DNA of 29,660 nucleotides from a virus. Lineage: Duplodnaviria > Caudoviricetes. Positions 9,675 to 22,898 of this stretch are shown here, piece by piece. Both the position numbers and the translations under genes were made by a program. Each line of letters opens with the position of its first letter. Position 1 is the first letter of the stretch. The notes beneath the pieces are model-generated. The model saw only the letters and a program-made list of their open reading frames with translations, did not search any database and was not told where the DNA came from. Location: positions 1-29,660 of the IMG/VR virus record IMGVR_UViG_3300037520_002130; one strand, 5' to 3'.

Positions 9675-9857
9675 ATGAAAAAGTTAGTATTAGTGTGTCT
9701 TACGGTTTTGACCACAATTTCTCTAATGACTTCTTGTGGTGAAAAAACAGCAACTCAAAATGCTACTGAAGTGGCTACACCTAACGCAACAACTGAAGAA
9801 GTTGCTGAGTCAACAGTGAACGCAACAGATGTGGTTGCTGACACAACAAAAAATTAA
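9675..9857 (+). CDS. Small lipoprotein (60 aa)
   Basis: MKK, a hydrophobic stretch and lipobox LMTS-C21, followed by a low-complexity Thr/Ala/Glu tail. It has its own terminator. Confidence 0.75.
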   Translation: MKKLVLVCLTVLTTISLMTSCGEKTATQNATEVATPNATTEEVAESTVNATDVVADTTKN

Positions 9858-9948: not shown

Positions 9949-9956
9949 ATATGAAG

Positions 9957-10367
9957 TGGAGGTGCGGAGGCTCGAACTCCGGTCCATAATATCCTGTCAG
10001 ATAAGGACTACACGTTTAGGTTAACATTTTCTAATGTTCCAAAATATTTGATTTTTTACTTGACCAAAAACAAGGTTAGTTTGTTCTTCACCATCGTAAA
10101 CCAACAATCAATAGACGACTCGATTTCGGGTTCAGTCGTATTCCACCTTTGTAAAGACTTCTGTTGCTAGGTTATATGTCCACCGACCCCCCGTTTCCGT
10201 GCTTAACTTAAGCTACAGTAACTTGCTCAGTTGAAATTAAACCAACCACTGAAAGGTTATCAAGTACGTTGCCGTATATAAATGTGAATCAGTTTTTAAA
10301 GAGATTAACTCAGTCTCTACGCGCCCTTATTCCTCAGCCAATACCTGTCAAATCCAAAAACACCCCC
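9957..10367 (-). ncRNA. ssrA: tmRNA (SsrA), ~411 nt, CCA not fully encoded
   Basis: 5' GGGGGTGTTTTTGGATTTGACAGG and 3' GGACCGGAGTTCGAGCCTCCGCACCTCCA form an acceptor stem GGGGGTG/CACCTCC with the G3:U alanine determinant, A discriminator and T-arm. Internal tag ORF at 10273..10208. Confidence 0.93.
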
Positions 10368-10433: not shown

Positions 10434-11633
10434 ATGTTGAAAAAAAAGTTTATTTTTGAAAACGAAGATGAAGATCCTGACAACTGGTCTGATTATAAAA
10501 ACATCATGCATTTAGCAAAAAATAGAATCAGTCCATATAACGTTCATTTTGAAACATCTGATGGTAAAAGTTTTGATGATATTATTGAAGTTACTCGCGA
10601 TGGTATAATTTTTACTTTTGATGGGTTAGAAGATTATTTAAAATTCTTTTTTCCTGAAGAATATGGTGAAAATAGTGAAGATGGTGAGTATGATGCCAAA
10701 TATTATGATGCCATGTATAATGGTAGATGGGAGTGGTATAATGATTTTTATGATAGAGATAGTGAAGATTGGAAAGAAGGTTATGTTACAGATAGATTAA
10801 GAAAAAATCATTTAGAATTAATTAGAGATATAACAAAAACTATTTCACCAAGACTTTATACAAAACTATCAAAAATGTTAGAAGAAGGTACTCCTCTTGA
10901 ATCAGAATTAAATATTGAAATAAGAGATTTTTTAGATACCATAGATATTGGTGATGAAATAACAGAAGCCTACACAGATGCAAATTATGCTGCGATTGTA
11001 GATGAAGTACCAAAAGGAATTAAAGACACATATTGTGATTGTTTAAGAAATGTTGGCGTTGAAAGATATAGTCAAAAATATTGTTTTTGGAAATATGAAA
11101 TGGATTGGGGATCTTGTATGATGTTATATGCTCGTTTTGGAACTGATGAAGATAAACTTTTAGATTTATTATTTGAAGCAATTAGAAAAGATAATATTAG
11201 ACATTTGCCAGTTTATTATGAAATGCAATATGAATTTTGGGACACTCAGAAATTTGAAGACACTTGGAATAGTGGTGTTGAAAGAGTATTAGAAAAGAAA
11301 TTGGAAGAAATACAAAGTGATTCTGAAAAATATGATGAAAAATATTTTGAAGTTTTAGATAAAGTATCTCAACTTGGCGGGCTTAATACTTGGATCAGAA
11401 CAAAAGACAAAAAATATGAAATATTAATTGATGATATTGAACCAAGTACTAGTTTAATTAGATATAAAATTAAAGAACCTTATCTTCAAAACTTAATTCA
11501 TAATAAGTGGAATACTAAAGTAGGAAAAACTGATATTGATAGTTTAATTAGTATGATTTATAATGAAAAATTATTTAACATGATGGAGCATCTTGATAAA
11601 TTTTCAATACTTAGAAATAAGACGTTCCTTTAA
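10434..11633 (+). CDS. Acidic hypothetical protein (399 aa), possibly a head-internal protein
   Basis: The track start (TTG 10269) overlaps the tmRNA. ATG 10434 (MLKKKFIFENEDED) follows TATTTATA at 10421-10428. No family recognised. Confidence 0.7.
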   Translation: MLKKKFIFENEDEDPDNWSDYKNIMHLAKNRISPYNVHFETSDGKSFDDIIEVTRDGIIFTFDGLEDYLKFFFPEEYGENSEDGEYDAKYYDAMYNGRWEWYNDFYDRDSEDWKEGYVTDRLRKNHLELIRDITKTISPRLYTKLSKMLEEGTPLESELNIEIRDFLDTIDIGDEITEAYTDANYAAIVDEVPKGIKDTYCDCLRNVGVERYSQKYCFWKYEMDWGSCMMLYARFGTDEDKLLDLLFEAIRKDNIRHLPVYYEMQYEFWDTQKFEDTWNSGVERVLEKKLEEIQSDSEKYDEKYFEVLDKVSQLGGLNTWIRTKDKKYEILIDDIEPSTSLIRYKIKEPYLQNLIHNKWNTKVGKTDIDSLISMIYNEKLFNMMEHLDKFSILRNKTFL

Positions 11634-12644
11634 TATTTCATATAAGTAAACTAAATCATCATCATTTATAAAAAGATTATTACCATCAAAAATATCTGAT
11701 ATTGTAATACCATCTTTTTCTTCAATAACATCAATACTTTCTAATTGATGAACTGGGTAATCTTCTTCCTCATCTTCAAATTGTAATAACGAGTTCATAA
11801 CAGTTTGTGGTGTGTATACGATTGGTTTATATTCGTATTTATATTTTTTCAAACCCAATTCTTTAACCATATTTAACCCTGCTGTAATTGCATTTTCAAC
11901 ATCTTCTATTGAAACAAATTCTTGATTTGAGTGCATGTTATAATAACCACAAGACATATTGATACAACAAACATCAATTTTCTTTTTTAATTGTGATATA
12001 TCAGTATAAGGGTGTGATTGAACAAGCATTTCATTTCCAAACGCATTTTCAATAACATCTAATGTTTTAGTAAAAAATTCACTATCACGTTCAAATAAAC
12101 GAACTCCCGAGCAAATCTCGGATATTAAATGATTACCAGGTGCGTCATATTGAGTGATATAACCAACATCTCGTAAAAAGGTTTCATCACATTTTGAAGA
12201 TCCGTGACATCCTGTTTCTTCTGAAACAAATAGACCAATTTTTACTTTATCTAATGTTTTTAATAACTCTAAACAAATAAAAATACCACATTTATCATCA
12301 CCACCAATACCTGTTGGGTTACCATCTTCGGTGTATGCTTTTAAGCACGGAACCTCATCATTACTAAATGATTTACCAAAAGTATTGGGTCTGATGAGGT
12401 TTTCTTCTTTAACTACGATTTTATCTACCTTATGATGAACGGTGTCCGTGTGGGCAATAAACATTGGATAATATTCACCTTCGTTTAATTTACCTTTAGT
12501 TGCATATATATTCATCATATCATCTCGGTAGTAGGAGACGCCTGGAATTGTGTCAAGTTCATTACAAAGATATTCTACCATATCTTCTTCTTGATATGTT
12601 TTAGAAGGGACCGATAGTAACTCTTTGAATTTGTTTAGGTTCAT
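11604..12644 (-). CDS. Zn-dependent peptidase/hydrolase, M20/M28/M42 clan
   Basis: Metal-ligand motifs AHTDTVH, GGDDKCG, SEETGC.GS, QYD and GYYNMHS.QE. Confidence 0.85.
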   Translation of the reverse strand: MNLNKFKELLSVPSKTYQEEDMVEYLCNELDTIPGVSYYRDDMMNIYATKGKLNEGEYYPMFIAHTDTVHHKVDKIVVKEENLIRPNTFGKSFSNDEVPCLKAYTEDGNPTGIGGDDKCGIFICLELLKTLDKVKIGLFVSEETGCHGSSKCDETFLRDVGYITQYDAPGNHLISEICSGVRLFERDSEFFTKTLDVIENAFGNEMLVQSHPYTDISQLKKKIDVCCINMSCGYYNMHSNQEFVSIEDVENAITAGLNMVKELGLKKYKYEYKPIVYTPQTVMNSLLQFEDEEEDYPVHQLESIDVIEEKDGITISDIFDGNNLFINDDDLVYLYEILKERLISKY

Positions 12645-12657
12645 TTAAATTTTTTTA

Positions 12658-12675
12658 TAAAGATAGTATATTTAT
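12658..12675. promoter_or_regulatory. Back-to-back promoter unit 1: minus TATCTTTA + plus TATTTAT
   Basis: Sequence taaagata-gta-tatttat; the same layout recurs at 14052 and 15357. Confidence 0.6.
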
Positions 12676-12693
12676 TAATAAAAACAAAATTAT

Positions 12694-13533
12694 ATGAAAA
12701 ATATTTTATCAAGTTTAAACGAAGGTGAAAAAAAAAGAATATTAGAAATGTATTATACTGGTTCTGCAAAAAAATACCTTACAGAACAAAAAGTCTATAA
12801 AGATGGTGGATATTCTTACAAAGTTGAAAATAATAAGTATTATTATAGTACAGATGATGGTAAAACTTGGTCTGAACAAACAAAACCCGAAGGAATTAAG
12901 GCGATACAAGGGGTTATTGCAAAACAAGGAGGAACAACCACAGGTACAACGTCAAAACAGAGTGGTACTGAAAAAACTCAGACCTCACCCGCAAAAACTC
13001 AGGCAAAAGAAAGAGTAACGGGGTTAGAGGACATTAATAAATCAATAAGTGCATTAAACAAATGGTCGATGGAAAACCCAATAAAGATTGACTACGATAA
13101 TACAGGTATTTATTCAGTGCAACTAAAACTATTAACTAGATCAATTAAAGAACACGTAGACTCAAAAAATTTTAAAACTGAATTTACTTATCCATATGGT
13201 GTTAGTGCTACTCTTATAAGGTCTAATGGTGCAACTGTTAATGATAAAAATTATTTGACTTTAAAAAGTGCTGATTGTTTTAAATCCTATAGTGTAGATT
13301 GGAAAGAGGGGATGCGTGTTGCTAGTTGGAAAACACTATCTGAAAAAATTACAAATATATATAATGGATGGTATAAAGGTAACCAAGGAGTAAAATTTTG
13401 TGGGTATAAAGATGTATTCTTAACCAATACAAATGGTATTTCAGCTCCAACCACAGAAATACAAAATTTAGTTTTTAATATTGATGCTGGTAGAATATAT
13501 AGTGAGACTTTAAATCATTGGGATCGATTATAA
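12694..13533 (+). CDS. Cassette 1 cargo protein: conserved N-terminus (MKNILSSLNEGEKKRILEMY...STDDGKTW) plus unique C-terminal domain
   Basis: First ~80 aa are near-identical to 14088..14906, followed by a Thr/Ser/Lys linker and then unrelated sequence. Confidence 0.8.
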   Translation: MKNILSSLNEGEKKRILEMYYTGSAKKYLTEQKVYKDGGYSYKVENNKYYYSTDDGKTWSEQTKPEGIKAIQGVIAKQGGTTTGTTSKQSGTEKTQTSPAKTQAKERVTGLEDINKSISALNKWSMENPIKIDYDNTGIYSVQLKLLTRSIKEHVDSKNFKTEFTYPYGVSATLIRSNGATVNDKNYLTLKSADCFKSYSVDWKEGMRVASWKTLSEKITNIYNGWYKGNQGVKFCGYKDVFLTNTNGISAPTTEIQNLVFNIDAGRIYSETLNHWDRL

Positions 13534-13536
13534 TAG

Positions 13537-14034
13537 TCAATTAATTTTTATTATAAATTCAGAGTCTTTGTGAAAAATACCCATACCAAAATTAGGTGTG
13601 TGAGAAGATTCCCAAAAATAAAACCTGTAACTAATATTTTTTTCTAAATCAACATACTGACAAATATTTATTTTTTTGTTTTTACTATGGTCAGTCCAAT
13701 CAGTTACTTTGTAATATATTTTAAATATTTTATTTGGTTTTATAACTAAAACAGAATCAATTTTATTTTTTTGAGCTAATGAATCTTTGTGATCCATTGA
13801 GAGTTCAAAAACTAAATTTTCTTTATCGTTTAAATTAAATAGTTGTGTTGTCCACATACCCAAGTCCGAAGTCAAATTTTCTGAATTCAAAGTTAAATTT
13901 TCAAGTGCGAAAATGTTTTTAATTTCAGAACCATAATATGTATACATTTCTGAGCGTAAAACCTTTATGGTAATAACTTGAGAAAATGTAATTAAAGAAA
14001 TCAAAGAGAAAAATAATGTGATTAAGGTTTTCAT
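13537..14034 (-). CDS. Cassette 1 partner: Sec signal-peptide protein, beta-rich
   Basis: MKTLITLFFSLISLITFS-Q, a Bacteroidota-style signal with Gln at +1. First 25 aa are identical to 14889..15341. Confidence 0.8.
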   Translation of the reverse strand: MKTLITLFFSLISLITFSQVITIKVLRSEMYTYYGSEIKNIFALENLTLNSENLTSDLGMWTTQLFNLNDKENLVFELSMDHKDSLAQKNKIDSVLVIKPNKIFKIYYKVTDWTDHSKNKKINICQYVDLEKNISYRFYFWESSHTPNFGMGIFHKDSEFIIKIN

Positions 14035-14051
14035 GATTATTGTTTTTTTTA

Positions 14052-14069
14052 TAAAGATAGTATATTTAT
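14052..14069. promoter_or_regulatory. Back-to-back promoter unit 2
   Basis: Sequence taaagata-gta-tatttat. Confidence 0.6.
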
Positions 14070-14087
14070 TAATAAAAACAAAATTTT

Positions 14088-14906
14088 ATGAAAAATATTT
14101 TATCAAGTTTAAACGAAGGAGAAAAAAGAAGAATATTAGAAATGTATTATAAAGGATCTGCAAAAAGATATCTTGCAGAACAAAAAATTTATAAAGAAGG
14201 TACATATTCTTACAAAGTTCAAAATAATAAGTACTATTATAGTACTGATGATGGTAAAACTTGGACTGAACAAACAAAACCTGAAGGTATTAAAGCAATA
14301 AAGGCGGTTATTGAAAAACAAGGAGGAACTGTTGATCAAAAACCACAAACACCTCCAGGTAATCCAAGTGCATACAGTACTCCTGGTACCTATTACGCAA
14401 AAGCACCTAACGGAACTAAAATCGGTATAAATAATACAGAATATAAAAAACAGGATTGGCAAGACTTAGGTGGTTCTGGTAGGGTATATTTATTTGGTCA
14501 AGACCCAAAAACAGGAAAATGGAATATTAGTTATGGGTCGGTTTCATGTAACACTGGTCAAATTGATGGAAATTATAAACCTTTAGGTACTGCACCTGAA
14601 GTTGTAGAATACGTTTCTAACAATTTTTGTGGTGAGGAAATAGGTAAAAAAGGTAGAATGTCAGGAAGTCAACCAAAAGTAACCGTATCAAAAGGCACTT
14701 ATCCAATAAAATCAGTATGGAAAAGAAAAAATGACGACTTAGCACAATGGAAAGAGGCATGGTTTACTGATTCTTTGGCCGATATAAGTTGTTCATCAAA
14801 AAAGGTAACGTTTACTGATAAAGGTAAAGCAATACCAGGATTTAAAGATTATTCACCTAAAGATATTAAGGCCATTGAGGACGCTCTTTTAACTGTTTGT
14901 TCTTAA
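14088..14906 (+). CDS. Cassette 2 cargo protein: conserved N-terminus plus unique C-terminus with four Cys
   Basis: Paralogue of 12694..13533 over ~80 aa only, with a Pro-rich linker (QKPQTPPGNPS). Confidence 0.8.
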   Translation: MKNILSSLNEGEKRRILEMYYKGSAKRYLAEQKIYKEGTYSYKVQNNKYYYSTDDGKTWTEQTKPEGIKAIKAVIEKQGGTVDQKPQTPPGNPSAYSTPGTYYAKAPNGTKIGINNTEYKKQDWQDLGGSGRVYLFGQDPKTGKWNISYGSVSCNTGQIDGNYKPLGTAPEVVEYVSNNFCGEEIGKKGRMSGSQPKVTVSKGTYPIKSVWKRKNDDLAQWKEAWFTDSLADISCSSKKVTFTDKGKAIPGFKDYSPKDIKAIEDALLTVCS

Positions 14907-15341
14907 AACCAAATATTTAGTAGGTATTATAATTCTAGTGTAGTCATACACATTATCATACCACATGTAGTAAACTTTATTTTTATCCTTAGTTAAATCA
15001 ATAACATATTGTGTCTTCCAAGGATTATTAACATCACCATCCCTTGGTTCAGTCATCCAAACAGTTAATAAATTGTTTTTTGTTGAAACACTATCAATGT
15101 TAATAGTAAACTGTTTAACACCATTAACTACGTAAGTTGATTTTTTATTATTTAAATCAATTTGATACTCAAAATTTTTATATTCTGTTGAGGTTATTTC
15201 AAGTGGATCTGACATTACGTGGTCAAAATCACTAAAACCAAAAGTTGCTTGTGTCACAAACTCCGATACTTTTATAGTAATAACTTGAGAAAATGTAATT
15301 AAAGAAATTAAAGAGAAAAATAATGTAATTAAGGTTTTCAT
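14889..15341 (-). CDS. Cassette 2 partner: Sec signal-peptide protein, beta-rich
   Basis: Same signal peptide as 13537..14034. The mature region is only faintly similar (IDSV, QY(V/VI)DL.K). Its 3' end overlaps the cargo gene by 18 nt. Confidence 0.8.
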   Translation of the reverse strand: MKTLITLFFSLISLITFSQVITIKVSEFVTQATFGFSDFDHVMSDPLEITSTEYKNFEYQIDLNNKKSTYVVNGVKQFTINIDSVSTKNNLLTVWMTEPRDGDVNNPWKTQYVIDLTKDKNKVYYMWYDNVYDYTRIIIPTKYLVLRTNS

Positions 15342-15356
15342 GATTATTGTTTTTTA

Positions 15357-15375
15357 CAAAGATAATGTATTTATA
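15357..15375. promoter_or_regulatory. Back-to-back promoter unit 3: minus TATCTTTG + plus TATTTATA
   Basis: Sequence caaagata-atg-tatttata; both elements are perfect matches. Confidence 0.65.
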
Positions 15376-15393
15376 TTATAAAACAAAATTTTT

Positions 15394-17178
15394 ATGAAAA
15401 ATATTTTATCAGAAGAAGAATTAAAAAGATATAGAGATTTAATGAATTATGATTCAAAAAAATCTCAAGGACTTTTAAGTGAAAATAAAGATTTTTTATT
15501 TGAGGCTTACGGAAAAGAATTTATCTCAGAAGAAGATAGAATCCGAAATATGCATTTAGATGCAATTAATGAAGATGGTGGAAAAAAGAAGAAAAAAAGA
15601 GTTTATAAAAGAGTTGATTTTGGACCTTTTGACGTGTCCTACTCAAAAACACCATCATATAGTAAAGGGTATAAAAAAACAGGAACACTTGATCAGTCAG
15701 ACACAAATTATAAATTTTTACAAGGTGGTGCGTATGAGTCAGAATATAAACCTGGCCGTTTTTACCAATCATTTTTTGGTAAAGAAAAACAAAAACTATT
15801 TAGAGAAACTTCAGAACACGATTATTCATTAATATTTGGGTATATTCTTAATGGTAAAAGTTTTAAAAAAGAAGATTTAAAAGATCAAAAATATTATCGT
15901 ATATTCATTGAAAGGCCTGCATTGTTTGAAAATAAAACACGTATTAAATATGTACCAATATTTAAAGTTTTAAAAGATGAAAAAATTGTAACAAGAAAGT
16001 TAATTCAATCAGATAGGTTCCAACAACAAACGGCAATATGGGAAGAAATTAAAGAAAAAGATCCAGCATATGCTGCTGACATTATTACTTATGTGAAATT
16101 TAATGACTGGATTGAGAGGGTTATATTAAAAAGATATGACGACACGGAAGAAATACCACCTGAAGATATTGTAAAAGAAACAGACCCGACAAAAACAGTA
16201 ACAGAACCGACAAAAACAGTAGAAGAACCCGATGAAAGTGAAGGAGTACCGATGATGGGTGCCGATTTTGGAATATCAGGAAGCGGTAAAAACAATTTAT
16301 ATATTGATAATTGTTATAAAGTAGATACTAACACTAAAAAGAAAATTGATGAAGAAATTGTTCAACCAATACTTGATGTTTTATCCAACATTCCTGAAAC
16401 GGTTGATAATAAAAAATTGATTTCAAAAATGATGAAAGGTAAAATTAAATTTACTTGGAGAGGTTGTGTTAATTCAGTTAATTTCACATCAAGCGCTAGT
16501 AGATTTAGAAACTCTAAAGGAACTACTTGTGACGCATCCAAATATACGTTTTTAGAACTTTCTAAATTAAGGGCTGAAAATGCAAAAAATTATATCATTA
16601 AAGAACTTATAGAAAAAAATAAAATGGCTTGGTGTACCGGAAAACCAATCATTAATTTAAATTATGCCGGTTCAAACGGTGATGGTACTTCAGGACCGAA
16701 CCCACCTAATGGATTTTCTTATATTGCAAAAGGTGAAAACAAAATGACGCCAAATGCCGATCCGACAAAAGATTTGTTTAACTTTAATGGTAGAGTAATA
16801 AAAAGAGATGAATGTGGCGCACCGTTGGCTAAAAAATCTGATTACGATAAATATAAGTACACAATTATAAATGTCGATGCGGCATTTAATTTTGAATTAA
16901 TGGAACCTGAAGTTCCTGAAGTCACTCAACCACAAACAACAACAACACCTGAAGACAAAAGTGAAACTCCAGGTGATGAAAAGGTTGAACCAAAAGTGGA
17001 AGTAAAGGCGGAGTCTCAATGGTACAGTGCGGATTTTTATGGTGAAGAAGAGATTACCGAAATAAAAAGAAAATGGAGGTGGAACTGGACAGGGTTTAAA
17101 AGTCCAAGAAAAAAACAAAGCGGCGAATCTTGGATAGGTAGAAAAGTAAAAACCGTAATATGTAACCAACCTGATTAA
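15394..17178 (+). CDS. Cassette 3 cargo protein (594 aa) with a divergent OmpA-like peptidoglycan-binding domain
   Basis: MKNILS start and an internal SEEDRIRNMH copy of the leader motif. VNFTSSAS...LELSKLRAENAKNYI resembles the OmpA-C LS..RA..V..YL signature. Thr/Pro/Glu linkers flank the domain. Confidence 0.6.
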   Translation: MKNILSEEELKRYRDLMNYDSKKSQGLLSENKDFLFEAYGKEFISEEDRIRNMHLDAINEDGGKKKKKRVYKRVDFGPFDVSYSKTPSYSKGYKKTGTLDQSDTNYKFLQGGAYESEYKPGRFYQSFFGKEKQKLFRETSEHDYSLIFGYILNGKSFKKEDLKDQKYYRIFIERPALFENKTRIKYVPIFKVLKDEKIVTRKLIQSDRFQQQTAIWEEIKEKDPAYAADIITYVKFNDWIERVILKRYDDTEEIPPEDIVKETDPTKTVTEPTKTVEEPDESEGVPMMGADFGISGSGKNNLYIDNCYKVDTNTKKKIDEEIVQPILDVLSNIPETVDNKKLISKMMKGKIKFTWRGCVNSVNFTSSASRFRNSKGTTCDASKYTFLELSKLRAENAKNYIIKELIEKNKMAWCTGKPIINLNYAGSNGDGTSGPNPPNGFSYIAKGENKMTPNADPTKDLFNFNGRVIKRDECGAPLAKKSDYDKYKYTIINVDAAFNFELMEPEVPEVTQPQTTTTPEDKSETPGDEKVEPKVEVKAESQWYSADFYGEEEITEIKRKWRWNWTGFKSPRKKQSGESWIGRKVKTVICNQPD

Positions 17179-17179
17179 T

Positions 17180-17680
17180 TTAATCAGCTACTATACCGAC
17201 GCAGATTATTTCATTATCGACCGAATATCCAAAGGCGAACACATAGTTAAATTTACTTGCTGTGATTTCTTTTTTGTGTGACGGAGACCCCATAAAACTA
17301 TCAAAAATTAATTTGGCTATTTCTTTTTCGTTTAATTTATCAAATTGACCTACCCTACACAATACTTCGCCATATTGTGTATATCTTTTACTTAATTTTT
17401 TATTTTTGTTTACAGTCTCACTGAATCGGTCAAATAAATTATAATATTTATTATCTCCGTGTTTATGGGATAAAAACATATTTTTTTTGGTTTTTAAGTA
17501 ATCTAATTGAAGATTTGCGACAGGTAACAACCCTTTGTCATTTTTTGGTTTCCAATTTCTATTATAAACTTCTGAAAGATATATTGAGTCGTAATACTTT
17601 GCAACAAGATCTAAATCTTTTTGACCTAAACTAAGTAAAGAAATTAGTAAGAATAATAATGATAAAAAAAAAGTTTTCAT
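17180..17680 (-). CDS. Cassette 3 partner: secreted CAP (SCP/PR-1) domain protein
   Basis: Signal peptide MKTFFLSLLFLLISLLSLG-Q and CAP motifs LSH, YGEVL and FMGSPSHKKEI. TAAGTTTG -7 element at 17700-17707. Confidence 0.75.
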   Translation of the reverse strand: MKTFFLSLLFLLISLLSLGQKDLDLVAKYYDSIYLSEVYNRNWKPKNDKGLLPVANLQLDYLKTKKNMFLSHKHGDNKYYNLFDRFSETVNKNKKLSKRYTQYGEVLCRVGQFDKLNEKEIAKLIFDSFMGSPSHKKEITASKFNYVFAFGYSVDNEIICVGIVAD

Positions 17681-17731
17681 AAGTTTTTTATTTATATTAC
17701 AAACTTACGAAAACTTTCAATATTTACAAAA

Positions 17732-19768
17732 CTATTTTTTACGTTTTGTTGGTTTTTTCACTTTAACCTCAGTTTTTTTATCCTTTTCGTTGTATGATAG
17801 AATAAATTTAGATCCTTTGTCTGGGTTGTCTGTTATTATTTTATCAGTTATTGCATCATCCACCCATTTTTGAATTGTTCTTTTCAAAATCCTTGCACCA
17901 AACCTAGTGTCAGTACCAATACTTATTATGTGTTTTTTTAAACTATCCTCAACTTCTATATCAAAATCAATTGAAGAAACTCTTTCATACACTTTTTCAA
18001 GTTCCAATTCGACTATTTTTAATAAGTCAGACTCATTAAGGTCTTTAAAGTAAATTATCTCATCAAAACGGTTAATAAATTCAGGAGCAAACTTTTTGAA
18101 TAATTCTTTTTCTAATACGGATTTTATTTCTTCTTCTTTTTTTTCTGTTTTAGAACTTGTTGAAAATCCAACACCTGTACCAAAATCCTGTACTATTTTT
18201 GTCCCAACATTAGAAGTCATTAAAATAATGCAATTTTTAAAATTAATTTTTCTTCCGTGCCCATCAGTTAAAAACCCTTCATCTAACATTTGTAAAAATA
18301 CGTTGAATATTTCAGGGTGAGCTTTTTCTATTTCATCTAATAGAATAACAGAATATGGTTTATTTTTAATTTTATTTAAGAATGGAGATCCGTCTTCATA
18401 TCCAACATAACCTGGTGATGTTCCTGTTAATTTTGATGTTGCAATTTTATCTGAAAATTCACTCATATCTAATCTAATAAGTGCATCTTCGGTATTGAAC
18501 ATATGTTTTGCTAATTGTTTTGCCAACTCAGTTTTACCAACACCTGAATTACCAATAAGTAATCCACTGAATATTGGTCTCTTTGGGTCATTCAAACCTA
18601 CTTTATTTCTTTGTATTGATCTTGATATCTTTGCAACTGCGTCGTCTTGACCAATAACCTTAGTACATAAAGTATCTTTTAAAGTTTTTAGTTGTTCTGT
18701 TTCGTCGGTTGAAATTTTTGATATTGGTATTTTTGTCATTAAAGACGCAACGTCATAAACAATGTCTTCAGTTACTTCTCTTTTAAATAGATTTCTATTT
18801 TTTTCAAATTCTGCCTTTTCCCTTTCTAAATCGTTTAAGACTTTTCTTTCTTTGTCTCTAAGATTTGCTGCTTCCTCGTATCTTTGGCTATTAATGACTC
18901 TAACTTTTTCTTCTTTTATTTCTTGTGCTTGACGTTTTAAATCCTCAATAATTTCAGGTAATTTAATTTCAACTTGAGATCTTGCACCAACCTCATCAAT
19001 AATATCAAATGCCTTATCGGGAAACTCTCTATCTGTAATGTATCTATCTGCCAATTCAACACATAGTTTTAATATATCATCACTATATGTTACCTTGTGG
19101 TGATCCTCATACCTTTCTTTTGAATTTTGAAGGATTTGTAATGTCTCTTCTTTTGTTGATGGATCAACCATAACTTTCTGAAATCTTCTTTCAAGTGCTC
19201 CGTCTTTTTCAATATTTTTTCTATACTCTTCTAAAGTGGTTGCTCCGATACATTGAAGTTCTCCTCTTGAAAGTGCTGGTTTAAAAATATTTGAAGCGTC
19301 CATTGATCCAGATGCGTTACCCGCACCAATCATTGTATGTATCTCGTCAATGAATATAATAATGTCAGGATTATTATATAACTCTTCCATTATGACTTTC
19401 ATTCTTTCTTCAAACTGACCTCTATATTTTGTTCCTGCAACAATTGATGTCATGTCTAAAGAAACTATTCTTTTACCTGATAAGTTTTGTGGACAATCTC
19501 CCTCAAATATCTTTTTGGCTAACCCCTCAACAATTGCGGTTTTACCACAACCTGGTTCACCTAATATAATAGGGTTATTCTTTTTTCTTCTTGATAGAAT
19601 TTGTGCAATTCTGTTTATCTCATCTTCTCTACCAACAACAGGGTCCAATTTACCTTCTTCAGCTAATTTAATTAAGTCTCTTGAGAAATTATCTAAAACG
19701 GGTGTTTTTGATTTTGTTTCAGGTTGTTTATTTTTTGATTTATCCATGTCGTCGTAAGATTCAATCAT
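17732..19768 (-). CDS. clpC: ClpC-type AAA+ unfoldase lacking the N-terminal Clp-repeat domain
   Basis: NBD1 GEPGCGKT/FIDEIH, pore loop KYRG, UVR middle domain (QRYEEAANLRD), NBD2 GNSGVGKT/LLDEIEKAHP, GYVG loop and ClpP-docking VGF loop. Confidence 0.92.
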   Translation of the reverse strand: MIESYDDMDKSKNKQPETKSKTPVLDNFSRDLIKLAEEGKLDPVVGREDEINRIAQILSRRKKNNPIILGEPGCGKTAIVEGLAKKIFEGDCPQNLSGKRIVSLDMTSIVAGTKYRGQFEERMKVIMEELYNNPDIIIFIDEIHTMIGAGNASGSMDASNIFKPALSRGELQCIGATTLEEYRKNIEKDGALERRFQKVMVDPSTKEETLQILQNSKERYEDHHKVTYSDDILKLCVELADRYITDREFPDKAFDIIDEVGARSQVEIKLPEIIEDLKRQAQEIKEEKVRVINSQRYEEAANLRDKERKVLNDLEREKAEFEKNRNLFKREVTEDIVYDVASLMTKIPISKISTDETEQLKTLKDTLCTKVIGQDDAVAKISRSIQRNKVGLNDPKRPIFSGLLIGNSGVGKTELAKQLAKHMFNTEDALIRLDMSEFSDKIATSKLTGTSPGYVGYEDGSPFLNKIKNKPYSVILLDEIEKAHPEIFNVFLQMLDEGFLTDGHGRKINFKNCIILMTSNVGTKIVQDFGTGVGFSTSSKTEKKEEEIKSVLEKELFKKFAPEFINRFDEIIYFKDLNESDLLKIVELELEKVYERVSSIDFDIEVEDSLKKHIISIGTDTRFGARILKRTIQKWVDDAITDKIITDNPDKGSKFILSYNEKDKKTEVKVKKPTKRKK

Positions 19769-21494: not shown

Positions 21495-22898
21495 ATGGGA
21501 GATTTAAGACCTTTAGGGAGTGAAAAATTAGGAGGAATTGATAAAATCAAACGCATCATGGAGATTGCTAGATATAACGAAACTTTAAATCCAATTAAAG
21601 AAGAGGAGACTAATTCATTACAATATCATAAAACAATATCTGACGGATACACTTACGGAATAGTAAAAGAAAAAAACGGTTATATTATTAAAAAATCGTT
21701 AAATGAAGCACCAATGGAATATTTGGATAATATGAAAAGTAGAAAATATTACAGATCATATTCAGAGGCATTAAAAAGATTAAATTTAATCGTAAAAGAA
21801 TCAAATAGACTTACCGGATATCAAGAAGATATATCTTTAATTGGTGAACAAAAGTTCGTATTAAAGACTAAAAAGACTGCAGATGCCCCGCCAGCTGAAC
21901 CGGCAGGAGGAGCTGAACCGGCGGGTATGACTCCACCAGCAGGTATGGATGTACCACCGGCAGGTGCTGAACCACCAGCGGGTATGGATATGCCACCGGC
22001 GGGTATGACTCCACCAGCAGGTATGGATGTACCACCGGCAGGTGCTGAACCACCAGCGGGTATGGATATGCCACCGGCAGGTGCTGAACCACCAGCGGGT
22101 ATGGGTACTGATACAGGTATGGAACCAATGGCAGGTGCTGAACCAGGTATGGAACCGGGAATGGGTGCTGAACCAGGTATGGAACCGGGAATGGGTGCTG
22201 AACCAGGTATGGAACCGGGAATGGGTGCTGAACCAGGTATGGAAGAACCTGACATGGGAGAAGATGAAGAAGAAATGGGTCCTGTTGGTCTTAAAACTAT
22301 ACAAAAATTAACGGGAAGATTGAGTCAAAAAATTAGAATGTTTGATAAAGAAAAAGGTTTAGATTCTCAAGACATTAAATATGTTGTAAATTCAATATTA
22401 TCGGCAATTGATTTAACTAAACTTGACGATGAAGACAGAGATGATATTTTGGACAAATTAGAACAATATGAATCTTATGGTGAAGAAGGAGAAGGTGATT
22501 TAGATATGGAAGGTATGGATATGGAAGAACCTGAAATGGGTGCTGAGCCAGGTATGGAACCAGGAATGGAAGAACCTGCAATGGGTGAAGAAACTCCACA
22601 ACCTCCCGTTGCTGAGTCTAAGGTTGAAAGATTACTTATGAGTTACTTTGATGTTAAAAAATCTGAAAAACCCGTTTTAGAAGAAAAAATTAAAAAAGAA
22701 TACTTGAACCAAAAAATTAAAACTTTAAAAATTAAAAATGAAGTTATTAATATGAGTGAATCAAAAAAACAAATGGATTTAGGGGTATCTTTATTAAATG
22801 AAAACTATAAGTTTGTTGGTAAAACAAATCAAGAAAATTTAGTATTCACTAAAAATGGTAGACAAGTTAAAGTAACACCAAGAGGAAGAGTTATATGA
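21495..22898 (+). CDS. Acidic Pro/Met/Gly-repeat protein, probable head assembly/core protein
   Basis: Ordered termini flank low-complexity tandem repeats. Preceded by TATTTATA (21435-21442) and lies upstream of TerL/portal. Confidence 0.6.
   Translation: MGDLRPLGSEKLGGIDKIKRIMEIARYNETLNPIKEEETNSLQYHKTISDGYTYGIVKEKNGYIIKKSLNEAPMEYLDNMKSRKYYRSYSEALKRLNLIVKESNRLTGYQEDISLIGEQKFVLKTKKTADAPPAEPAGGAEPAGMTPPAGMDVPPAGAEPPAGMDMPPAGMTPPAGMDVPPAGAEPPAGMDMPPAGAEPPAGMGTDTGMEPMAGAEPGMEPGMGAEPGMEPGMGAEPGMEPGMGAEPGMEEPDMGEDEEEMGPVGLKTIQKLTGRLSQKIRMFDKEKGLDSQDIKYVVNSILSAIDLTKLDDEDRDDILDKLEQYESYGEEGEGDLDMEGMDMEEPEMGAEPGMEPGMEEPAMGEETPQPPVAESKVERLLMSYFDVKKSEKPVLEEKIKKEYLNQKIKTLKIKNEVINMSESKKQMDLGVSLLNENYKFVGKTNQENLVFTKNGRQVKVTPRGRVI
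21917..22078 (+). repeat. 78-bp tandem repeat x2 (PAGMTPPAGMDVPPAGAEPPAGMDMP)
   Basis: Exact copies start at 21917 and 21995. Confidence 0.92.
22134..22244 (+). repeat. 30-bp tandem repeat x3.7 (GAEPGMEPGM)
   Basis: ggtgctgaaccaggtatggaaccgggaatg at 22134, 22164 and 22194, partial at 22224. Confidence 0.93.

Follow-up and report, generated by a model that had tools for sequence, protein, structure and literature searches.

In a 29,660-base virus record (IMG/VR record IMGVR_UViG_3300037520_002130, analysed at full length and hereafter called the window), three pairs of genes lie tail to tail between a peptidase gene and a ClpB-like gene. In each pair, a plus-strand gene that joins a conserved N-terminal leader to a variable body (the cargo) faces a small minus-strand gene for a predicted secreted protein (the partner). 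Judged by sequence comparison, these cassettes are mobile two-gene units, gained, lost and relocated together among related phages, and the peptidase–ClpB interval is a hot spot. The arrangement in the window is as follows.

11604..12644, minus strand: M42/M20-like peptidase, the conserved gene to the left of the hot spot
12645..12693: head-to-head junction 1 and left cassette boundary, the host-type box of the peptidase (minus) back to back with the TATTTAT late-type box of cargo 1 (plus); putative promoters, from their motifs
12694-13533, plus strand: cargo 1, 279 amino acids (aa)
13537-14034, minus strand: partner 1, 165 aa, predicted secreted
13961..14329: repeated block of partner-1 signal sequence, divergent promoter junction 2 (14035-14087) and cargo-2 leader
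14088-14906, plus strand: cargo 2, 272 aa
14889-15341, minus strand: partner 2, 150 aa, predicted secreted
15268..15411: repeated block of partner-2 signal sequence, divergent promoter junction 3 (15342-15393, with a perfect TAnnTTTG on the minus strand) and the start of cargo 3
15394-17178, plus strand: cargo 3, 594 aa
17180-17680, minus strand: partner 3, 166 aa, predicted secreted
17681..17731: right boundary, with a TAnnTTTG box upstream of partner 3, adjoining the ClpB stop
17732..19768, minus strand: ClpB/ClpC-like ATPase, the conserved gene to the right of the hot spot

The original prediction, made from the letters alone, had described three tail-to-tail pairs, and the open reading frame (ORF) coordinates bear this out, with gaps of 3 nt and 1 nt and an overlap of 18 nt between facing 3′ ends. 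As it also stated, the plus genes start with MKNILS (3/3), the minus genes encode proteins of 165, 150 and 166 aa whose hydrophobic N-terminal stretch ends in S/G-Q (a signal peptide by eye and by our own heuristic), and partners 1 and 2 have 25 N-terminal residues in common. Two repeats span the head-to-head junctions: D1 (12650-12935 versus 14044-14329; 286 nt, 91%) and D2 (13961-14086 versus 15268-15393; 126 nt, 85%). The conserved DNA is that of the junctions, and the variable stretch between repeats therefore consists of a cargo body and a partner mature domain. An assembly artefact was rejected, because contigs with 0 differing letters cross all three tail-to-tail junctions in lake runs X2 and X4, which are not flagged as a possible source; 4 of the 24 listed runs were examined, and no single contig from X2 or X4 spans the whole array. 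A contig from run X14 (85% likeness) joins 12688 to 17725, the form of an empty allele, probably from a relative.

Across a set of 79 cassettes, one of them added by hand, the two genes carry opposite promoter boxes. A host-type TAnnTTTG box lies ahead of 75/79 partners and 0/79 cargos, whereas TATTTAT lies ahead of 67/79 cargos and 3/79 partners; we assign the latter a late role because it sits before structural genes. Of the proposed split into early partners and late cargos, the opposed boxes are thus present, and the timing has the support of these motifs.

Loci were sampled through the peptidase (the best 80 of 146 viral and the best 80 of 232 metagenome loci) and the KTSC gene (80). Among 90 distinct peptidase–ClpB alleles, the window included, 44 were empty, 16 held plus-strand genes only, 29 held cargo and partner and 1 had an extra partner; none of the 90 was partner-only. 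Other hot spots are the interval from ClpB/UVR to KTSC and the neighbourhood of the pyrimidine-dimer glycosylase and tmRNA genes, and three cargo–partner combinations were found at no fewer than two sites each. In alleles of close relatives, the empty site has one host-type box, and filled sites have a host-type box at both ends plus TATTTAT at the left, an arrangement that suggests recombination at promoter repeats as the likely mechanism. Recombination between repeated promoter cassettes (PeSLs) reshuffles T4-type genomes, according to the accessible part of PMC2839356. The PeSL cassettes of RB49 and phi1 described there likewise consist of repeated promoter elements that bound swappable modules in hyperplastic regions; what is repeated here, however, is an early/late junction with its boxes back to back, leader and signal coding DNA included, and what it bounds is a convergent pair. 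Among viral contigs no relatives of cargo 2 were confirmed, nor any of partner 2 among metagenome contigs, and scans with DUF2927 and CAP partners returned no loci beyond those already in the set.

Within the 79 cassettes, cargo and partner travel together. Cassette pairs with homologous cargos had homologous partners in 71/86 cases, against 101/2,995 otherwise, and where cargo identity was at least 30% the partners were homologous in 48/48 pairs. Fourteen of the 15 exceptions share just part of a large-cargo sequence; the remaining one is cargo 1 versus cargo 2 of the window. At the window's site (33 cassettes), all 24 pairs with homologous cargos had homologous partners, the Spearman coefficient was 0.34 for partner against cargo and -0.02 for partner against peptidase, and the same cassette was present in only 9/96 pairs of phages with at least 90% peptidase identity. 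The expectation that cargo and partner co-vary as mobile units is therefore upheld by the 24/24 and 48/48 counts and by combinations that recur at different sites; independent assortment among relatives was not observed. Partner status is, in these sequences, a trait of the cargo family: 15 of 34 families are always partnered, 17 never and 2 are mixed (counts uncorrected for relatedness).

Nor is the pairing plain interleaving of early and late genes. We read seven long related records in 20-kb stretches (1,665 ORFs, with genes cut at stretch ends lost). For leaders we used hidden Markov models (HMMs) of our own, with hot-spot cargos as seeds, and for signal peptides a heuristic of our own. 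A leader gene faced 12/29 small secreted genes in these records versus 17/743 non-secreted genes; among genes with a host-type box, the counts were 9/11 versus 11/99 (Fisher p 1.6e-6, an optimistic value, the records being related). The corresponding counts in a hot-spot-biased set were 76/80 small minus-strand secreted genes versus 25/196 non-secreted ones. Only 12/102 leader genes in the seven long records had a partner; secreted early-type genes therefore seek leader genes, and the reverse does not hold.

Several secreted or membrane genes lie outside this pattern. Runs of plus-strand secreted genes adjoin the head gene region in L104 (G002), L096 (G003) and L085 (G001), unpaired with leader genes. 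The sole small minus-strand secreted gene of G001 that does not face a leader gene (L093:13187-13780) encodes a non-specific endonuclease (PF01223), by its sequence a nuclease that may be exported to attack incoming DNA. Near the glycosylase–tmRNA site of L011, L135, L147 and L153, some leader genes face a gene for a hydrophobic membrane protein, rhomboid-like by eye.

The two genes differ in how fast they change. The cargo was less conserved than the partner in 57/61 pairs (partner identity of at least 45%), and a one-to-one cognate partner diverging with its cargo was not found. In the L059/L103/L199 trio, partners are 91% identical (proportion of synonymous differences, pS, 0.40-0.65) opposite cargos of 25-36% identity, and the proportion of nonsynonymous differences (pN) is about 0.05 in the partner versus 0.45-0.54 in the cargo. 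Where partner identity reaches 70% or more, 7/21 pairs have no BLAST match between their cargos; 1 of the 7 still aligns and 6 are the DUF2927 set. Each partner meets 1-3 cargos within units, and large cargos with a common domain stand opposite CAP partners in some cassettes and DUF2927 partners in others. Matching between cargo and partner is thus at the level of families, not one to one.

The cargos have the conserved N-terminus and variable C-terminus that had been proposed. In cargo 1, a leader with [IL]xE at residues 8, 16 and 29 is followed by a block common to cargo 2, a linker and a C-terminal domain with Cys195/Cys236; the protein has 4 other database relatives and no Pfam or PHROG family above cut-off. 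Cargo 2 (7 relatives, 69-89% identity) has the leader and the shared block followed, in the predicted structure, by two beta-sheet-plus-helix domains with Cys pairs 154/181 and 235/271; the best model has a predicted confidence (pLDDT) of 78 and the remaining four 51-60. Fold searches with it gave no clear known fold (best Z 4.1, with the second domain barely covered), and its alignment with cargo family P1 is confined to the leaders. Cargo 3 has a longer leader and a central domain with an SAS...L..R motif common to large cargos. This domain is at most a lead to the C-terminal domain of OmpA: the likeness is sub-threshold and at motif level (OprF 5u1h, E 0.28, with an LPP20-family chain ranking above it; another comparison scored 0.85, with OmpA on 10% of members), and PF00691 was unmatched above cut-off. 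A full-length large-cargo profile had no match in the PDB, and in Pfam neither the 3 cargos of the window nor 35 related plus-strand proteins nor 15 further large cargos reached a cut-off. Among 55 small cargos, 14 lack cysteine and 37/41 of the rest have an even number. Two observations concern cargo modules. One body (81% identical) occurs under two different leader types in L062:9434-9928 and the L183 cargo, so leaders are exchangeable modules; and a Cys-rich cargo family of 16 members (mean 6.9 Cys; L028, L045, L063 and others) occurs at hot spots, never with a secreted partner.

T4-type prohead proteases cut at L/I-x-E. The leaders hold 6.29 [IL]xE motifs per 100 aa, against 0.33 in small-cargo bodies and 1.82 in other proteins; in large cargos the values are 4.79 for leader versus 0.83 for body, and the body of cargo 3 in the window retains several sites. 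A rich leader and a depleted body fit exposure to a T4-type prohead protease and packaging in the head, so the proposal of a capsid-packaged cargo gains indirect support and stands as a prediction. In the parts of PMC3012670 and PMC12373910 available, the T-even internal proteins Ip1, Ip2 and Ip3 have one capsid-targeting leader and inhibit cytoplasmic GmrSD nucleases. The cargos resemble them in joining a common N-terminal leader to variable, mutually unrelated bodies, in lying at a genomic hot spot and in being, by prediction, packaged and injected. Unlike them, the cargos have a different leader sequence and larger, Cys-paired bodies, and no secreted partner gene is described for the T-even proteins in those parts of the two papers.

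Three folds account for most of the partners: CAP, DUF2927 and a barrel of lipocalin-like type; a number of partners have no family assignment. By our heuristic, 79/79 are of the Gln type and 0 of the lipoprotein type, and a signal peptide is called for 28/28 distinct minus-strand genes at the hot spot. The mature part of partner 1 gave no family link, and its profile comparison with the partner 2 family was insignificant. Partner 2, a member of partner cluster M0 (E 7e-13), is predicted to form a beta barrel of the lipocalin/avidin class (pLDDT 85); its best solved-structure match is a generic barrel (Z 8.6, root-mean-square deviation 3.2, 96 aligned residues), Foldseek found none in the PDB at E<=0.001, and the matches in a viral structure library are uncharacterised or unnamed phage proteins. 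Partner 3 clusters with PF00188-positive (CAP-domain) partners, yet has no direct Pfam match itself; its family profile matches BB0689 (4d53, E 1.5e-8) among solved structures, and we take it, from sequence, as divergent CAP/SCP-like.

Our preferred reading, to which we give a probability of about 0.4, is that cargo and partner would not be toxin and antidote but would hit one and the same envelope target of the host, in two waves; we favour it because the pairing and its asymmetry are T5/BF23-like and the cargo is internal-protein-like. We infer packaging, ejection, location, timing and target as follows. The leader of the late-made cargo would bring it into the prohead, cleavage at [IL]xE would trim it, and infection would eject it, as with T4 internal proteins. 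Its action would then be that of a non-catalytic binder in the envelope, as the paired cysteines and a possible wall-binding domain in large cargos suggest. The partner, made early from a host-type promoter, would be exported to the periplasm and bind a conserved face of the same target, which would stay blocked, so that later phages using it would likely be hindered. Recombination between the repeated back-to-back promoter junctions would swap cassettes.

The T5/BF23 module, as described in the available portions of PMC9586334 and PMC4728585, consists of pb5 (Oad) or Hrs, a tail-tip receptor-binding protein, and the lipoprotein Llp, a periplasmic blocker; in PMC4728585, a divergent Hrs stands next to an almost identical Llp, both acting on one receptor. 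There, too, an adjacent virion gene and exported blocker (export being predicted here) are swapped together, and the virion protein diverges while the blocker is conserved. The module differs in being single in each genome, with a lipoprotein blocker and a tail-tip virion protein, whereas here the cargo looks head-internal and optional, the partners look soluble and have at least three folds, and a genome has several cassettes.

Several points weigh against this two-wave reading. The T5/BF23 virion protein is an essential receptor-binding protein at the tail tip, whereas the cargo looks head-internal and dispensable (44/90 alleles empty), and it is hard to see how blocking the cargo's target would exclude a phage. 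The cassettes being optional, their benefit must be host- or competitor-specific, a weak point of the reading. The OmpA-like assignment of large cargos is weak, 90/102 leader genes have no partner, and record G007 has zero cassettes by the filters used. Tight linkage alone would also lead to co-assortment, and the counts come from leader HMMs seeded on hot-spot cargos, from heuristics of our own and from non-independent genomes. Moreover, extra tandem or orphan partners (L014, L073, L173, G006) recall the orphan immunity genes of toxin loci.

Those extra partners fit a possible, if doubtful, alternative in which the partner binds a conserved surface of an ejected cargo that harms or remodels the envelope and switches it off, conferring self-protection or kin-specific immunity. 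Also in its favour are the homologous partner that always accompanies cargos of at least 30% identity (48/48), the 15 always, 17 never and 2 mixed among 34 cargo families, and the precedent of T4 Spackle (gp61.3), in the accessible part of PMC7677548 an early periplasmic inhibitor of the virion lysozyme gp5. Like the partners by our interpretation, Spackle is a periplasmic protein that the phage makes early and that matches a protein of the virion, but it is a conserved helical bundle on a conserved enzyme, and no enzyme fold was found in the cargos. Direct neutralisation is further opposed by the lack of any catalytic toxin family above the Pfam cut-off among the cargos, by partners of 74-91% identity opposite cargos that are 25-36% identical or have no BLAST match, by one partner serving 1-3 cargos and by the absence of partner-only alleles (0/90); in a first infection, moreover, the cargo would precede the partner. 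A complex prediction for the cargo 2 domains with partner 2 scored 0.00 with controls that did not fold, and has no weight either way. The stricter form of the original prediction, a polymorphic toxin/immunity system, is not supported, given the lack of a toxin family above the Pfam cut-off, the lower conservation of the cargo (57/61) and the 1-3 cargos per partner. The cassettes do share with MuF and other polymorphic toxins a constant trafficking N-terminus, a variable C-terminus and a small adjoining gene; unlike there, no toxin domain was found, and the small gene lies on the other strand, under a different class of promoter, and has changed less than the cargo.

We consider it unlikely that the cassettes are a by-product of genome architecture, in which any stretch between two copies of the early/late junction becomes a convergent unit whose genes hitchhike without shared function. 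It is the junction, not the pair, that is conserved in DNA, promoter-cassette recombination shuffles T4-type genomes (PMC2839356, in the part available), and 90/102 leader genes do without a partner. This explanation, however, leaves the secretion of the early gene unexplained (9/11 versus 11/99, and signal peptides in 28/28 hot-spot minus genes). The same repeats could serve an early gene on its own, yet 0/90 alleles are partner-only, and the pairing holds down to 30% cargo identity and across sites. Kin sensing, in which a periplasmic partner would detect the cargo of a superinfecting relative and delay lysis or trigger exclusion on the model of T4 lysis inhibition, is highly improbable: a dispensable, non-catalytic, hypervariable cargo and a family-matched periplasmic partner suit a tag and its reader, but the partners look soluble, lacking a membrane anchor and any visible tie to a holin, and a fast-changing tag next to a static reader would lose specificity.

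The window belongs to a large lake phage, a member of an uncultured lake clade with T4-like portals and the same cassette system. Its terminase and portal are T4-like, the best portal matches among phage records (36-38% identity) are Mel-JY01, an uncultured phage and Flavobacterium immuto phages, and the metagenome runs that contain the window's sequence are for the most part from lakes or freshwater. A TAnnTTTG promoter box and a Gln-type signal peptide are Bacteroidota conventions, and the host of the clade is, on these sequence features, probably Bacteroidota. Two leader sequences queried against cultured phages gave zero matches. Beyond the array, the window holds a further feature.

9954-10367, minus strand: phage-encoded tmRNA (Rfam RF00023, 94 bits)

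ARAGORN made no call for this tmRNA. An ORF call that starts at 10269 runs into the tmRNA, and the true start of that ORF is therefore probably 10434; the pair formed by 10434 (plus) and the peptidase was rejected as a cassette, the peptidase being unsecreted and both neighbours constant in G001, G002, G003 and G005. A 60-aa lipoprotein-like ORF (9675-9857, plus) is kept in relatives, a 467-aa protein with long Pro/Gly/Met/Glu repeats (21495-22898, plus) lies upstream of the terminase, and the N-terminus of the Clp ATPase (17732-19768, minus) lies near its first AAA domain.

Each ingredient of the cassettes has a precedent, and their combination seems new as far as the literature found goes. 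We found no paper on a convergent cargo/partner layout, most subscription papers and supplements being outside the coverage, and the accessible part of PMC13573597, which reports secreted candidates in Flavobacterium jumbophages, does not mention it. Somewhat unlikely, though in our view worth stating, is a clade-wide phage-versus-phage polymorphic system, in which a variable envelope-acting kit would be injected, early periplasmic partners of at least three unrelated folds would neutralise or sense their own cargo family, and lake phages would tell kin by shared cassettes. The 79 natural pairs are ready matched and mismatched controls. If cargo and partner bind each other, the cassettes would be a virion-delivered effector/immunity system between lytic phages; if, as in our two-wave reading, both genes hit one host target, they would map envelope-level defences or receptors in Bacteroidota. 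With the cassettes, the strategy of the T4 internal proteins would reach beyond the cytoplasm to the cell envelope, joined there to a large and mobile family of secreted proteins encoded by abundant freshwater phages.

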